Source of the DNA: Candidatus Micrarchaeota archaeon
Lineage (GTDB): Archaea > Micrarchaeota > Micrarchaeia > Anstonellales > Bilamarchaeaceae
Assembly (NCBI GenBank): GCA_018304385.1
Contig: JAGVWJ010000008.1
Location: 32,308-96,307, forward strand
Length of the DNA stretch: 64,000 bases
Reading direction: 5' to 3'
The notes beneath the pieces are model-generated. The model worked only from the letters and a program-made list of their open reading frames with translations, had not been told where the DNA came from and ran no database searches. Below are positions 33,339 through 39,655 of the stretch, one piece after another (the stretch's first letter is position 1; every line of letters begins with the position of its first letter). The position numbers and the translations under genes are program-made.

Positions 33339-33389
33339 TGGTAGAAAGAGTTTGAAGATTTATAAATACTTCGGTCTAAAGTACTTGTT

Positions 33390-34517
33390 ATGAGGTTAAA
33401 TTATAACTTAGCGCCAGGCTCTAATTTTAGATTTAGTAGAAGAACTGCCATGGCATTTGCAGTATTTTTACCATTCACGTGCGCACCTACTCGCGGAGAA
33501 GTCAGGCATGTTGCTGGAACAAATACTGTTATAATGCATGAAGATACTTATAAGGATTTAGAAGCTCAAGCAGCAAAACAAGCAGCACCTGAAGATACCG
33601 AAAGAGAAGAAATGCTTAGAAGAATTAGTGAGTTAATAGGAGATAACACAACCTTGAGAGAAATAAATGAAATATTAAAAACAAGAAACTCAACTGTTGA
33701 AGGAGAGATAACATCATTGATAAAAGCTTTAAGATCACGTGACCCGAGAGGTAGAACCCCATCTTACGATTTATCTAATGACCCTGCCTTTAAAGTAGGT
33801 AGATTATATTTGCATTCCTTAGGGGTAGAAAATCCTACTTACGTAGATTATAGTATTTTAATTGAAATGTTAAGTTTTCAAGCAATGATAAAACAGGTTA
33901 CAGATAGTACTGTGATAGACCCTACGACACTAAAAGATCAAATAAAAAGAAACTATATCTCAGTAAATGGCGGAGGAGGAATTTTACTTAGCACAGATGG
34001 ATATTTTATCACTGCTTATCATGTTGTTGCTAACTCAGAAAACTTTTATGTACAATATAATGGTAGAACGTATAATGCACAACGTATTGTTTGGAATCCC
34101 AATTATGAAGTTGCTATATGTAAAATTGACTTTGGACCAAATGTTGAATTTAGTCCTACAAATGTCAGATTCGCTCGACTAGGAAAAATAAGAAAAGGTG
34201 CAAACATTGAGGTATTTGGTCATGTAGGAGATAATCAATATTTTCAGATGGGGAGAATTGTCAATAATAATGTTGAGTCACTTCTTGATGGAGGGCTGCA
34301 CGTATATTCTATGGTTGAAACTACAGCACTTTCAACAGGTGGCTTTAGCGGTGGGCCGGTTATCCTTCAAGATACCGGAGAATTAGTAGGTATCACATCA
34401 TATAGCAAAGGAATGCCTGGGGAGTTAGGTGCTGCAAGAATAGATCAATTCTTAGAAGTAATGAGATGGTTTGTAGATAAAAAACTAGAACAGTTGAGGA
34501 TAATACATCGCTCTTAA
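33390..34517 (+). CDS. Secreted trypsin-like serine protease with MRLNY leader and coiled-coil
   Basis: TAYHVV (His), GFSGGP (Ser); YEVA at the usual Asp position. Confidence 0.8.
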   Translation: MRLNYNLAPGSNFRFSRRTAMAFAVFLPFTCAPTRGEVRHVAGTNTVIMHEDTYKDLEAQAAKQAAPEDTEREEMLRRISELIGDNTTLREINEILKTRNSTVEGEITSLIKALRSRDPRGRTPSYDLSNDPAFKVGRLYLHSLGVENPTYVDYSILIEMLSFQAMIKQVTDSTVIDPTTLKDQIKRNYISVNGGGGILLSTDGYFITAYHVVANSENFYVQYNGRTYNAQRIVWNPNYEVAICKIDFGPNVEFSPTNVRFARLGKIRKGANIEVFGHVGDNQYFQMGRIVNNNVESLLDGGLHVYSMVETTALSTGGFSGGPVILQDTGELVGITSYSKGMPGELGAARIDQFLEVMRWFVDKKLEQLRIIHRS

Positions 34518-34909
34518 CTAAATAATTCCTTAGTAGGCTGGTGGAACCATAGGATATAGATAGGAACTAATCCAATAAGCCCAGGAATATTTCCTACGAC
34601 AACGCTTAAAACGCTCATCGCACTGCTAACTAGCACTAGAAAATAAGCAAACTTATTCCTTTTCCATAGATAGAATGTGATAGCAAAGCCGATTATTGCT
34701 GTGATAACAAGAACTATTCCTATGTATGCTAATAAACCCCCAGCAAAATCAAGTAAAGCACCATATAATCCATAACCTTTAAGCGTTTCTAGAACTGATA
34801 CACCACCAATTATAAACAAAACACCTAACCCAAGCAATAAAAGATCAAAAAGAAAATAAAAAGCAACAAGAATTTTTAATAAAGTTGTTGCAGGCTTTGA
34901 TCCATCCAT
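34514..34909 (-). CDS. Small multi-pass membrane protein
   Basis: About four hydrophobic spans. Confidence 0.7.
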   Translation of the reverse strand: MDGSKPATTLLKILVAFYFLFDLLLLGLGVLFIIGGVSVLETLKGYGLYGALLDFAGGLLAYIGIVLVITAIIGFAITFYLWKRNKFAYFLVLVSSAMSVLSVVVGNIPGLIGLVPIYILWFHQPTKELFS

Positions 34910-34917
34910 GATATCGC

Positions 34918-35010
34918 CTTCTAATTTCTCATTCTCATGAATACGTCGTACTACCGATATTCTCTATAGTGACGCAGTCTTATGTTCTCTTAGGCTGCGT
35001 CGGTCGTTTA
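34918..35010. repeat. Dispersed ~100-bp hairpin element, copy 2
   Basis: acgtcgtactac..ctatagtgacgcagtct..gctgcgtcgg. Confidence 0.8.
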
Positions 35011-35037
35011 ATGTATTCCTTAGGTTATGAAATATCC

Positions 35038-35550
35038 CTACAAGAACGGATGCTCTGCCATACCGCCTATTACTGGCAGTTTAACCTTCTCGCCACTATA
35101 TGCTTTGAATGCTAGGAAAAGATCTATTAACATAATAACAAATCCTACCATGCCAAACAGACCAATTAATCCTAGGGACGCACCTAATCCACCACCCGCA
35201 TAATACCCAATTGGATCATAGTAAGCGGTTCTTAAAGATGCTACGAATAAGAAATAAAATACAAATCCTATTCCAACAACAACTAATGTCCATAAGAATG
35301 CTTGAAATGAACAAAAGGCAAGGAATGGGTCATTTTTCTTTCCTTTATTATGAAAATAAATAGCCAATGGAATTATTAATCCTAAAAGACCCCAATAACC
35401 GCCATCACCAAAACCATAACCGCCAATACCACCTGCCAAATAAGCAATGCCAGCTAGTGCCTTTGGATCATCTAAAAAAGTTGGAGCAGGTTGTGCTGCT
35501 GGAGCTGCTGGAGCTGCTGGTTGTGCTGTTGCAACTGGAGTATCTACCAT
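35038..35550 (-). CDS. DUF4870-like membrane protein
   Basis: F..FQAFL and FKAYSGEKVKLPVIG motifs. Confidence 0.75.
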   Translation of the reverse strand: MVDTPVATAQPAAPAAPAAQPAPTFLDDPKALAGIAYLAGGIGGYGFGDGGYWGLLGLIIPLAIYFHNKGKKNDPFLAFCSFQAFLWTLVVVGIGFVFYFLFVASLRTAYYDPIGYYAGGGLGASLGLIGLFGMVGFVIMLIDLFLAFKAYSGEKVKLPVIGGMAEHPFL

Positions 35551-35615
35551 ATTATCACCTTGTTTTTGTTACTAAGAATAAATTTATAAACACTTGCTTG
35601 TAGATTCAGGCAATT

Positions 35616-37082
35616 ATGCAAATGTATAACTCATTTTCCAGACAGATAGAGGAGCTCAATGCTCAAGGCTCAATGCTCAAGGCAATAACCATATATGTCT
35701 GTGGCCTTACTCCTTATGATAGCGCACATATTGGCCATACGCGAACATATGTTGCATTTGATATTATAAAACGCTACTTGACTGCAAATGGTAGCTCTGT
35801 TTTTCATATACAAAACATTACTGATGTTGATGACAAAATAATAAAACGATGCAAAGAAACTGGAGAATTGCCTAAGAAGCTCGTAGAACGAAATCATAAC
35901 GAAGCGCTTGAATATTTTGATAAACTAAATATTATTCGTGCTAATGTTTATCCAAAGGTTACTGAGCATATAAAAGAAATAATTGAACTAATAGAAAAAC
36001 TTATTGAGAATGGCTATGCATATGAAACAGAAACTGGCGTTTATTATGATGTAAGCAAGTTTAAGAATTATGGAAGGCTTAGTAATCAAAAAATGGATGA
36101 GATAAAGGCTGGTTCTAGAAAAGAGGTTGATGAAACAAAACAGGCTGCTGAGGATTTCGCTTTATGGAAAAAAACTAATAATGAGATAATAGAATTTGAT
36201 TCACCTTGGGGTAAAGGCAGACCTGGCTGGCACATAGAATGCAGCGCAATGGCAAATAAGTACGCAAAAAAATTAGATATACATGGCGGAGCGCGCGATT
36301 TAATATTTCCGCATCATGAAAATGAGATTGCACAAAGCGAAGCTGCAACTAGTAGCAAATTTTGCAATTATTGGTTACATACTGGTTTTCTAACAGTTAA
36401 TGGAGAAAAAATGAGTAAGAGCCTTGGCAATTTCATAACTGTTAAGGAAGTTGTTAATAAATTCAGTGCAAATGCTGTTCGTTTGTTCTTTTCACAAACC
36501 CATTACCGCAGTCCAATAGATTATAATGAAGAGCAATTAAATGCTGCAGAAGAATCAGTAGAACGGATATTCAATACTCTTGGTTTGATGAAAGAAGCTA
36601 ATAAGAAAGGAAAACCAAATAAAGAATTCAAAAGCGCTGCGAAAGAGAAAATTGATGAGTTTTACAAGCATATGGAAAATGATTTTAATACGCCAGATGC
36701 GCTTGCTAGCCTTTTTGATTTATTGAGATTAATTAACGCGCATATCTCAGGCAAAGAAGCAGATGGAAAACACGTTAATGTACTAATAAAAGAATTAGAA
36801 AAAATACTTTTGATATTTGGATTGGAAGAGAAGAAAGAAGAGATTGAGAAAAAATTCAAAGAAATAACGGAACTGCAAGGATGGGTTAGTGATAACTTAG
36901 GTATTGATTGGGAAAAATTAGCTGATACTGCAGAAGGAAGATTAGAACAGCTAATATCATTTCGTGATTCATTACGCGCAAATAAAAAATTCAAAGAAGC
37001 TGATATTATCCGTGCAAAGCTAGCAGAAATTGGCATTGAATTAGAAGATAAAGAAAAAGGAAAGAGATGGAAGTTAGCTTAG
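35616..37082 (+). CDS. cysS: Cysteinyl-tRNA synthetase
   Basis: CG.T.YD..HIGH, DFALWK, GRPGWHIEC, FPHHENE, KMSKS. Confidence 0.97.
   Translation: MQMYNSFSRQIEELNAQGSMLKAITIYVCGLTPYDSAHIGHTRTYVAFDIIKRYLTANGSSVFHIQNITDVDDKIIKRCKETGELPKKLVERNHNEALEYFDKLNIIRANVYPKVTEHIKEIIELIEKLIENGYAYETETGVYYDVSKFKNYGRLSNQKMDEIKAGSRKEVDETKQAAEDFALWKKTNNEIIEFDSPWGKGRPGWHIECSAMANKYAKKLDIHGGARDLIFPHHENEIAQSEAATSSKFCNYWLHTGFLTVNGEKMSKSLGNFITVKEVVNKFSANAVRLFFSQTHYRSPIDYNEEQLNAAEESVERIFNTLGLMKEANKKGKPNKEFKSAAKEKIDEFYKHMENDFNTPDALASLFDLLRLINAHISGKEADGKHVNVLIKELEKILLIFGLEEKKEEIEKKFKEITELQGWVSDNLGIDWEKLADTAEGRLEQLISFRDSLRANKKFKEADIIRAKLAEIGIELEDKEKGKRWKLA
35654..35681. repeat. (GCTCAATGCTCAAG)x2 heptamer tandem inside the cysS 5' coding region
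   Basis: Read directly from sequence. Confidence 0.85.
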
Positions 37083-37114
37083 TTTTGGGTTTATGAGTTT
37101 TGAGTAGCGGACTA

Positions 37115-37549
37115 TCATAGATCGGCATTAGGCAATTTTCCATGAAATATCTTTTGTTCTTTATTAAAATGTTTTTTACAAAGATAGCTCCAACCTTTAT
37201 CTTTATATTTTCCTCCTAAAAGAGCCGGATAAACTTCTCTATATGCTTTATTCATACATGTACCATCATAATCGCATAATGGTTGAAAGATCCATTTTAC
37301 TTTGTCTCTATTAAGGAATTTTATTTTATTAGATTCACGCAGATAACCTAAAATTTCAGAAAACTCATCGTAATAAAATTTGCTTGAAAAATGTTTCCAC
37401 GCTTTTCTTCTGGTAGTGTTTCCCTGCTTTCTTAAAAAATCTTCAATGTCATAAAGCAAAAACACAAAATCTATTGCTTTGTCAACATTTTGTTGACAAA
37501 TATTGTCAGCGTTTTTTTGCAACGCTGACAATGCTTTAAATTTTTTCAT
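37115..37549 (-). CDS. Hypothetical protein with possible C-terminal Cys/His metal site
   Basis: CDYDGTC ... CKKH. Confidence 0.55.
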   Translation of the reverse strand: MKKFKALSALQKNADNICQQNVDKAIDFVFLLYDIEDFLRKQGNTTRRKAWKHFSSKFYYDEFSEILGYLRESNKIKFLNRDKVKWIFQPLCDYDGTCMNKAYREVYPALLGGKYKDKGWSYLCKKHFNKEQKIFHGKLPNADL

Positions 37550-37559
37550 TGTCCTTTCC

Positions 37560-37790
37560 TCACACTTCTTCCAGAAGTCCTATAAATTCATCTCTGCTCA
37601 ATTCCATGTCCCTTATAATCTTTCTTAAAAGTCCTCTGCCAATATCTCTTCCAGGATGAACAGGAACTGTTATTAGAATGCCTTTTTCATTCTTGAATTG
37701 AACATGGCTACCACTTTGCCTTATTTGTGTGTAACCTTTAAGAACAAGAATTTTGATTAGGGTTTTCGCATCCACTAAGGGAAGCTTCAT
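37560..37790 (-). CDS. hicA: HicA-family toxin
   Basis: RQSGSHVQF, TVPVH, GLLRKII. Confidence 0.92.
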   Translation of the reverse strand: MKLPLVDAKTLIKILVLKGYTQIRQSGSHVQFKNEKGILITVPVHPGRDIGRGLLRKIIRDMELSRDEFIGLLEEV

Positions 37791-38002
37791 GCAGAAACCT
37801 CAACTCTCTGTACACCTACAAATTCATGTGGATGAACATCTTTTTGACCTTCTAAACAAAGGGCAATTACTTCTTTTATATTTTCAAGTACCTCCTGCAG
37901 TGTTTCGCCCTGTGTGTAGCAACCTTTTAAATCAGGAACTTCTGCTACATACATTCCATCCTCATCTTTTTCGATAATTACAGTAAAACTGTATTTTCCC
38001 AT
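37787..38002 (-). CDS. hicB: HicB-family antitoxin
   Basis: YVAEVPDLKGCYTQGETL.E..N; GGTGA SD precedes ATG 38002. Confidence 0.92.
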   Translation of the reverse strand: MGKYSFTVIIEKDEDGMYVAEVPDLKGCYTQGETLQEVLENIKEVIALCLEGQKDVHPHEFVGVQRVEVSA

Positions 38003-38090
38003 ATGTTTCACCATAAAATTATTGTAATTATGATTTTTTATTTATATCGATTTGAAAAATGAAGGAAAAAAAGAGAAACCTATTCCGGGC

Positions 38091-38849
38091 TTATTGGCTT
38101 GCTGGCGCTGCAGCTGCAGCTTTAACCTGCTCAACTAAAGCTTGACCTATGCGTTTTATAAGACGTGTGTAGGAGTCTTTATCAACTGGATTGTAATTAT
38201 AATCACTGCTAAAATATCCCATACAACCGTCTCTTGAGAACATACCTGGCGCTTGCTCCTCTTCCAAACATCTATCAGCATTATCTCCAAGCCCTTCATT
38301 AGTTACAATCGTCTTTGTGCTAGTTGGTTTTGCACCAGGACCTGGTCCTCTCACATTCATAATAGCAAAATTACTACCGCCCGAGCTAATACCAGAATTT
38401 CTCAAATTTATGATTCTAAGAGCGGTTTCATTATCTAAAACACCTTTACCTAAAGGATCTGGGTTAGCAGTCAAAATCACTAATGAATCAGATTTATCGA
38501 TCTTGCCTTCACTAGATGCATGATCAAAAAATAAAACATAGTATTTCGTACCACCTATATCAACTGCTTTAATATGGACTTTGTGATAATCCTTGCCATC
38601 TTCTATCTCTTCACCACTATGTGTTCTACGAGTGTAAGTAGTAGTAATATCCATAGAATGATCTGCATGAGTCATTACTAAATCAGCAACAGTCCAAATA
38701 TTACAATCAATACTAAAATCGCACTCTTGTGCGCGTGCTTTGGTAGGAAGTACCAAGGCTGCAAGCAATGGCAAAACAGCAGCAAATGCTGTTGGCCTTG
38801 TTCTATCCCTACTATTTTGTCCGATTTGTCTACTATAGTTAAGTTTCAT
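38091..38849 (-). CDS. Secreted hypothetical protein with MKLNY leader
   Basis: Start at 38849 with GGCGAT SD; hydrophobic signal ending ARAQ. Confidence 0.7.
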   Translation of the reverse strand: MKLNYSRQIGQNSRDRTRPTAFAAVLPLLAALVLPTKARAQECDFSIDCNIWTVADLVMTHADHSMDITTTYTRRTHSGEEIEDGKDYHKVHIKAVDIGGTKYYVLFFDHASSEGKIDKSDSLVILTANPDPLGKGVLDNETALRIINLRNSGISSGGSNFAIMNVRGPGPGAKPTSTKTIVTNEGLGDNADRCLEEEQAPGMFSRDGCMGYFSSDYNYNPVDKDSYTRLIKRIGQALVEQVKAAAAAPASQ

Positions 38850-38862
38850 AAGATCGCCAAAT

Positions 38863-39504
38863 TTAAATTTTAGTTTCTGCTTTTGCTTTAAAATATTTAA
38901 CAAATGCGTCACTTATATGTTGAAGGGCTGCAAGAAAATCACCTTTTAAGTCGCAGGCAAAATCATATTCAGATGGGTTCACTTTATAATTATACAAACT
39001 AGTACGCTCACATTGAGGAACAACATCTCTGCTTACTTTAATTGTTTCTGCAGGGTGAAGAATAAACTCTGCACCTGTTACTACCCCATCCTTAATGGAT
39101 ATAGTAAGCATGTTAGCGATCTCAAAATCAGTTCTATCGATTCTGTCTACAGAACCATCACCATCAACATCACAGGCAGCTATTCTATATATCTCCATCT
39201 TACCATCCGGGCCATAAATATGCCCCCAAACTTCTGGGTTGCCACCAATAATTTTTTTATCTACTATGCAAGATCCATTGTCACTAACGTAATCTGGTAA
39301 TTCAGGACTTCTTGTTTTTGGTTTTGGTTTTGCGTCAGTTGCCTCTGCCTTGATATTTTCTTTTCCTTTTCCAACAATCTGCGCACTTGCACACGCGTTT
39401 AACAATCCCAATCCAGCAACCAAAACAGCAGCGCTTGCAAATTTAGATCTCCTTTCATTCCTAGTACTTTTTCCGGTATTTACACTAGCATAATTCAATT
39501 TCAT
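38863..39504 (-). CDS. Secreted hypothetical protein with MKLNY leader and one EF-hand-like loop
   Basis: Signal ending ASAQ; DVDGDGSVD loop. Confidence 0.7.
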   Translation of the reverse strand: MKLNYASVNTGKSTRNERRSKFASAAVLVAGLGLLNACASAQIVGKGKENIKAEATDAKPKPKTRSPELPDYVSDNGSCIVDKKIIGGNPEVWGHIYGPDGKMEIYRIAACDVDGDGSVDRIDRTDFEIANMLTISIKDGVVTGAEFILHPAETIKVSRDVVPQCERTSLYNYKVNPSEYDFACDLKGDFLAALQHISDAFVKYFKAKAETKI

Positions 39505-39655
39505 ATATAACCCCCCAATTGTCTAGTAATTAAGCTAGACTATTTATTTTAGAATTAATAGGTTCCAAACTATTTTTAAAGCTTCGCTTTTTGCCATTTT
39601 TGGCAACGGTGTGATTATTTCAATTCCTGACCCATTGCTGAAAGCCGATGGAAAC

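Follow-up and report, generated by a model that had tools for sequence, protein, structure and literature searches.

The ESPR (extended signal peptide region, PF13018) of type V secreted proteins, known from domain analysis (PMC2805444), is a conserved extension that precedes a Sec signal peptide sufficient by itself. Only a minority of exported proteins have it; it is believed to delay or condition their translocation and is itself no targeting signal (PMC8151025). The YSIRK/GXXS motif (PF04650, TIGR01168) directs Sec substrates among the Gram-positive surface proteins to the septum (PMC5962339). In DPANN archaea, the lipidation enzyme AliA and lipobox proteins have been reported (PMC12462473). 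The 64,000-nucleotide stretch of Candidatus Micrarchaeota DNA analysed here (the window) contains three genes whose predicted products begin with M-[KR]-L-N-Y and continue into a putative export leader. This N-terminal tag, generalized to M-[KR]-L-x-Y, probably forms the conserved start of an extended signal peptide specific to this lineage, which would be functionally similar to the ESPR and YSIRK signals and is a member of neither family.

The likeness to the ESPR lies in the head of Met, polar or basic, aliphatic and aromatic residues (MNKIY in the ESPR) ahead of a complete Sec signal peptide, in the restriction to a minority of the exported proteins, and in an apparent dispensability for the export of at least some cargo. 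In contrast to the ESPR, in which about 25 residues are conserved, with N1 charged and H1 hydrophobic, and which diderm bacteria carry on type V secreted proteins, the archaeal tag has 5 residues and no H1, and its cargo is archaeal, includes many lipobox proteins and is found in one genus-level clade. The YSIRK motif is likewise a short conserved motif in a long signal peptide, common to unrelated surface proteins, and it does not drive export but sets where and how Sec-dependent secretion occurs. It is located at the boundary of the n- and h-regions, whereas the tag occupies residues 1-5, and the cargo here is archaeal and lacks LPXTG-type anchors. When 10 leaders were compared with the ESPR, YSIRK, TAT_signal and KxYKxGKxW models of Pfam and NCBIfam, no match was obtained at E <= 10, and the full tagged proteins did not match PF13018.

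Enrichment of the tag and anatomy of the leader

The window belongs to contig C20 of the analysed genome (G000; 1.53 Mb, 36.5% GC, 89% complete). The genome is archaeal, and the gene of the PolD large subunit ends 52 nt ahead of the first tagged gene, a protease gene. The original prediction described three open reading frames (ORFs) with an M[KR]LNY leader, starting at 33390, 38849 and 39504 and encoded by differing codons, and the sequence bears this out. A crude proteome of 1626 genes (470,219 residues) was used, and expectations were taken from position-specific residue frequencies. [KR]LNY was observed 7 times at residues 2-5 of the 1626 genes, versus 0.099 expected (Poisson P = 1.7e-11), and just 5 times internally in all 470,219 residues. 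In a six-frame scan of the genome, x[KR]LNY stood behind a start codon eight times, and seven of these eight head ORFs of 150-375 aa. The genome-wide enrichment proposed as a check was thus found. A relaxed pattern, M-[KRI]-L-x-Y with position 4 free and Ile at position 2 or an additional Met allowed, extended the set from 3 to 12 proteins, whose tags are MKLNY (three), MRLNY (four, one with a GTG start), MRLGY (two), MRLHY, MKLMY and MILNY. A still looser pattern, M[KR][LIVMF][NDSTQ][YFW], was rejected, as its extra matches were all non-secretory or spurious ORFs.

M1, L3 and Y5 do not vary among 14 aligned leaders, which come from two species. Among the tagged genes, Leu3 is encoded by CTA, CTG, CTT, TTA and TTG, and the K/R residue by AAA, AGA, AGG and CGA. 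Within 250 nt around the starts, common DNA is limited to chance 10-17-mers at non-homologous positions. Because five Leu3 codons and varied K/R codons are used and the leaders have no DNA similarity, the tag is, judging from its coding, maintained by selection at the peptide level, as had been claimed. The GC content at third codon positions (GC3) of the 12 tagged genes is 0.17-0.28, compared with a genome mean of 0.275, so that it is native or lower and gives no sign of a recent foreign origin. The tag codon appears to be the real translation start, because in 10 of the 12 genes no downstream in-frame ATG, GTG or TTG would yield a charged n-region. The N-termini are identical in independent assemblies (NCBI, JGI/IMG, ENA). 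A TATA-like box stands about 26 nt 5' of the start in three tagged genes, and others have a Shine-Dalgarno (SD)-like sequence or are second in an operon.

The cargo behind the tag is diverse. The 12 proteins include a protease, a tetratricopeptide repeat (TPR) protein, a peptidoglycan (PG)-binding protein and proteins without homologs, and they represent at least 11 unrelated families. By BLASTP, the mature parts are mutually unrelated except for one pair (C20:15443 and C20:20622, 27% identity); the cargo domains are therefore unrelated as originally described, and the proteins are not full-length paralogs. The 12 genes lie dispersed among housekeeping genes, alone or two together, and no neighbour or transporter-like gene recurs beside them.

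The leader is bipartite. In all 12 proteins, the tag is followed by a polar, basic, Arg-rich stretch of 17-38 residues and then by a single hydrophobic segment, and no further membrane segments are present. Signal-peptide features were judged by a heuristic scan, and the n-h-c layout, with basic residues ahead of one hydrophobic core, was found in 12/12. The conserved part consists of M, L3 and Y5 only; the spacer is polar and variable in length and has no hydrophobic stretch of the H1 type. Pairs of RR are present in about three of the 12 leaders (SRRT, ERRS, ARRF), and in most leaders just one Arg or Lys precedes the core (FRLL, ARAL, FKRF, CFKV). In seven leaders the core is followed by a lipobox-like Cys, with some non-canonical residues at -3/-2 (PFTC, LNAC). 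The five leaders without a lipobox Cys include some with ARA/Q or AHA/A sites (the slash marks the putative cleavage site) and two without a clear site. The lipobox-like ends, x-x-[AG]-C, resemble those of the archaeal lipobox leaders of the AliA/AliB pathway, but the described leaders have no conserved N-terminal tag (PMC12462473; PMC2945643).

Two lipobox populations exist in G000. About 53 leaders are short, rich in Leu, Ile and Phe, and end in L-x-[AS]-G/C, for example MRLFVVFILIAILFISG/C. A minority of about 20 leaders has Arg-rich n-regions of 17-45 residues and Ala-rich cores. Ordinary lipobox leaders and tagged leaders differ in core hydropathy (3.29 versus 2.47, P = 8e-7), core Ala content (6% versus 25%), median n-region length (5 versus 26 residues) and median net charge (+1 versus +4.5). 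Lys exceeds Arg among the basic residues of the n-region in the ordinary leaders, and Arg exceeds Lys in the tagged ones. These results indicate that the tagged leaders are a class physically distinct from the bulk lipobox leaders of G000. The loci C7:32460-32975 and C38:1084-3336, for example, contrast with the window genes at 33390, 38849 and 39504.

A second leader flavour was also seen, in two proteins without BLASTP similarity to each other, MKLRITDVRTRTENRSNPLARVG and MKNLRINDLRPRPRTSNPLANLG (C46:23364-24155 and C24:2252-3211, both on the + strand). It has an M-K-L-x-hydrophobic-polar head and a SNPLA box ahead of the core, and an 'NP' placed some 8 residues ahead of the core recurs in leaders of G002, a genome of the same genus.

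Protease orthologs and distribution of the leader

The protease has an ortholog in G002 with 43% identity, and its neighbours, encoding CysRS, a DUF4870 protein and a small membrane protein, are kept. The G002 protein starts with MRFMRR-LALSTALAIGVTA-C-APNRGEVRQVAG; a stop lies three codons upstream, and there is no tag. This start aligns with FRFSRR-TAMAFAVFLPFT-C-APTRGEVRHVAG of G000, which makes MRLNYNLAPGSNF a 13-residue extension before a complete lipobox-type signal peptide. The protease of a third species (P0002, 57% identity) retains MRLNY, with the N-terminus MRLNYSRNREPLICENNRR-ATVFAAFLAVSPLA-C-APTRGEVR; a search of genome contigs with P0002 found no related locus. Cys+1 and the subsequent APxRGEVRxVAGT are invariant across the three orthologs, and the leader has diverged, with only its tag, one Arg and its core kept. 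The G002 protease, which lacks the tag, is headed by a normal short signal peptide of the lipobox kind, so the tag does not seem to be indispensable for protease export.

The leader has a narrow distribution. When 40 relatives were searched with the DNA pattern ATGARRYTNAAYTAY, which does not cover CGN Arg codons, nearly all matches were chance matches on short ORFs, except in G002. This genome encodes two proteins with the strict tag, MKLNY (150 aa) and MRLNY (267 aa), both with a lipobox, and no counterpart of either was found in G000. The G002 orthologs of G000 members bear looser tags (MRFRYND, MQLNFND). A leader profile searched against the same-genus genomes recovered the training sequences alone in G000 and G002 and nothing in G001 (92% complete), where the tested cargo genes were not found either. 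A 16-leader profile searched against 1.84 billion representative proteins gave 12 matches at E <= 1e-3, of which nine are N-terminal and all from this clade and the other three are internal and of low complexity; such a short profile is blind to weak relatives, and the search bounds strong matches only. The TPR protein has no homolog in the 40 relatives. The cargo turns over quickly, and each species puts the leader on private proteins of its own.

Several tagged loci outside the window have features of their own. The MKLMY lipobox protein (C19:35824-36438, +) begins one base past a run of polytopic membrane-protein genes, and a gene for a 631 aa lipoprotein comes next. The PG-binding protein with the MRLGY tag in G000 (C20:14895-19312), or MRFRY in G002, is flanked by the same two membrane-protein genes in G000 and G002; one of them matches NQR2_RnfD_RnfE (E = 6e-15), the other has no family, and nothing is export-related. 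Two ORFs adjoining the gene of the MKLNY TPR protein (C12:18529-20553, -) are rich in Gly, Pro and Arg, unlike the remaining proteome, and could be spurious or belong to a region of foreign composition. The MRLNY gene at C16:1-451 is cut at 150 aa by the contig end; the full protein of 407 aa (P0013) is present in other assemblies and has no Pfam family. A protein of 315 aa on C52 may be rich in beta structure or resemble a barrel; its AlphaFold2 single-sequence model has a mean pLDDT of 31 and is unusable.

The tagged genes of the window

The features of the three window genes are listed in Table 1. From the spacing of the TATA-like box, the protease mRNA would be leaderless or nearly leaderless and begin at the MRLNY ATG, an argument that follows from general knowledge of archaeal promoters. 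The other two genes probably form a two-gene operon, and the tag of the 252 aa protein begins 13 nt past the stop codon that ends the upstream gene for the 213 aa protein. The ORF finder places the start of the 252 aa gene at GTG 38912, overlapping the end of the upstream gene. Because MKLNY is conserved at 38849, the shorter gene model from this position is probably correct and GTG 38912 is probably not the true start.

Table 1. Positions of the tagged genes and their leader elements in the window
Feature	Position	Strand	Details
Gene of the predicted exported trypsin-like serine protease	33390..34517	+	375 aa; N-terminus MRLNYNLAPGSNFRFSRRTAMAFAVFLPFTC; Trypsin_2 (PF13365) at residues 195-335, E = 9.8e-17
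Protease tag, M-R-L-N-Y	33390..33404	+	atg agg tta aat tat
Whole leader of the protease, residues 1-30	33390..33479	+	tag, polar spacer, F-R-F-S-R-R n-region, hydrophobic core AMAFAVFLPFT
Cys31 of the protease, directly after the leader	33480-33482	+
TATA-like box, tttataaata	33359..33368	+	22-31 nt 5' of the MRLNY ATG
Gene of the predicted exported 213 aa protein	38863..39504	-	N-terminus MKLNYASVNTGKSTRNERRSKFASAAVLVAGLGLLNAC
Tag of the 213 aa protein, M-K-L-N-Y	39490..39504	-	atg aaa ttg aat tat
G-run gggggg	39511-39516	-	possible SD site 5' of the 213 aa gene
Leader of the 213 aa protein, residues 1-37	39394-39504	-	lipobox-like L-N-A-C, Cys = residue 38
Gene of the predicted exported 252 aa protein	38091..38849	-	N-terminus MKLNYSRQIGQNSRDRTRPTAFAAVLPLLAALVLPTKARA/QEC
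Tag of the 252 aa protein, M-K-L-N-Y	38835..38849	-	atg aaa ctt aac tat
Leader of the 252 aa protein, residues 1-40	38730-38849	-	end A-R-A/Q, signal-peptidase-I-type site

Neither the 213 aa nor the 252 aa protein has a Pfam family above the threshold, and no homolog of either was found in 25 relatives or in 5.8 billion clusters. Comparison of both with a protein atlas gave no usable match; the models were of low confidence and the scores were in the chance range. Directly 3' of the MKLNY pair lie two small genes that overlap and encode 76 aa and 75 aa (window 37560-38014, -); judging from their look, they may be a toxin-antitoxin pair of the HicA/HicB type.

Explanations of the tag and their significance

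SecY is encoded in G000 (C42:843-2009, 218 bits). SecA, Lgt and LspA were not found in this genome, which is the expectation for archaea. TatA and TatC were also not found in G000, and TatC was detected in 0/41 genomes of the order, whereas the 11 control genomes were positive. SecYE is the sole translocon detected, and Tat is very unlikely, because TatA and TatC were not found and RR is present in only about 3/12 leaders.

We favour the reading of the tag as the head of an extended signal peptide with two parts. The first is an N-terminal extension, consisting of the tag and roughly 8-30 polar, Arg-rich residues. The second is a Sec-type signal peptide that is complete in itself: its n-region is basic, its hydrophobic core is rich in Ala, and it ends with a lipobox-like Cys (7/12) or a small-x-small site. 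The precursors would pass the membrane via SecYE, the extension staying in the cytoplasm during insertion and being removed together with the signal peptide. The tag may act ahead of translocation or in its course, by being recognized or by affecting kinetics, and not as the export signal itself; it could hold or pace weakly hydrophobic precursors, or choose the export site. Sec dependence, cleavage and the targeting or kinetic effect of the tag are all what we infer from these features.

Several points weigh against this explanation. Start, cleavage and export are predictions from the sequence, and the signal features were judged by heuristics. The loss of the tag from the G002 protease fits a modulatory role and also one that is of no consequence. 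A single small clade has the leader, and it was not found in G001 of the same genus, which leaves little comparative power to tie it to a factor. The genome is 89% complete, so machinery could lie in the missing part. To our knowledge, archaea have no SecA, SecB or trigger factor, the partners in the ESPR discussion, and the analogy to the ESPR is therefore functional only.

The original prediction had regarded the leader as an undescribed targeting signal for a dedicated export route. That the leader is undescribed agrees with the searchable literature, where neither the motif strings in this sense nor archaeal extended signal peptides were found described. A targeting signal for a separate route, or a mark of host-directed effectors, has no direct support, with a complete Sec-type signal peptide behind the tag in 12/12. 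An address label for a dedicated non-Sec route, for example for effectors delivered to the host cell, would suit the at least 11 unrelated, lineage-specific cargo families of fast turnover, two of the three window proteins having no homologs, and the tagged proteins of G002 without G000 counterparts. The physical distinctness from bulk lipoprotein leaders and the one member directly after a run of polytopic membrane-protein genes would also fit. We still regard such a label as unlikely, considering that the G002 protease ortholog manages without the tag, that the 12 scattered genes have no transporter gene recurring in their neighbourhood, that the search for Tat genes found none and that the tag is limited to a genus-level clade. 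It is likewise unlikely that a lineage-specific cytoplasmic or membrane factor reads the tag and sorts weakly hydrophobic, Arg-rich precursors from the bulk co-translational lipoprotein stream to a particular site or to an outer or host-facing layer, a proposal in which the precursors carry fast-evolving, species-private surface proteins.

The hydrophobic segment could instead stay uncleaved and anchor the protein in the membrane in an N-in orientation, at least for the five members that have no lipobox Cys, and the tag would be a permanent motif of the cytoplasmic tail that binds a partner for sorting, clustering or turnover. The long and strongly positive n-regions (median net charge +4.5) favour an N-in orientation, and a conserved extreme N-terminus would be accessible to cytoplasmic factors. 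In contrast, short Ala-rich cores with a hydropathy of 2.47 are weak as stable anchors, and cleavage is favoured by the lipobox-like Cys of seven proteins, a residue that does not vary among the protease orthologs and stands immediately ahead of their best-conserved stretch, as well as by the A-x-A-type sites (ARA/Q, AHA/A) of others; we consider an anchor quite unlikely. A tag without any role in export is more doubtful again. It might reflect a translation-initiation constraint on the first codons of leaderless or short-leader mRNAs, to which the TATA-like boxes about 26 nt upstream of three members and the A/U-rich codons would point, but other members have SD-like sequences or are second in an operon. 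It might also be the relic of an ancestral 5' cassette; variation that is only synonymous or a K/R exchange, with no common DNA beyond the motif, argues against a recent one. The restriction of the motif to long secretory leaders, in 12/12 against about 1600 other genes, fits neither form of this idea.

Tat signal peptides with an unusual N-terminus are hardly probable at all. The tagged leaders share with Tat substrates, including the haloarchaeal Tat lipoproteins, a long n-region, a low-hydrophobicity Ala-rich core, an occasional RR (SRRT, ERRS, ARRF) and, in several members, a lipobox. The twin arginine of S/T-R-R-x-F-L-K before the h-region is not conserved here, one Arg or Lys standing ahead of the core in most members, and none of 10 leaders matched the TAT_signal models at E <= 10. 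The Arg cluster is thus no Tat motif in most members, and TatC was seen in 0/41 genomes, where the controls were positive.

We know of no motif of the ESPR or YSIRK kind in archaeal signal peptides, and the extended signal peptide proposed here is apparently the first motif-bearing one in an archaeon. Motifs inside signal peptides, such as the ESPR and YSIRK, are among the few known means of sub-sorting Sec substrates, and how archaeal precursors whose signals are weakly hydrophobic get to SecYE in the absence of SecA and SecB is a basic question of archaeal secretion. Its narrow distribution, in one uncultured genus-level clade, limits the value of the finding. Within this clade the tag sits on the fastest-changing exported proteins of a host-dependent archaeon, where it gives a five-residue, mutable target for probing sub-sorting in archaeal secretion and a practical marker for the variable surface proteome. 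If a factor does read the tag for sorting, it would be the first such sorting motif in an archaeal signal peptide and would give a handle on how DPANN archaea build the surface that contacts their hosts.

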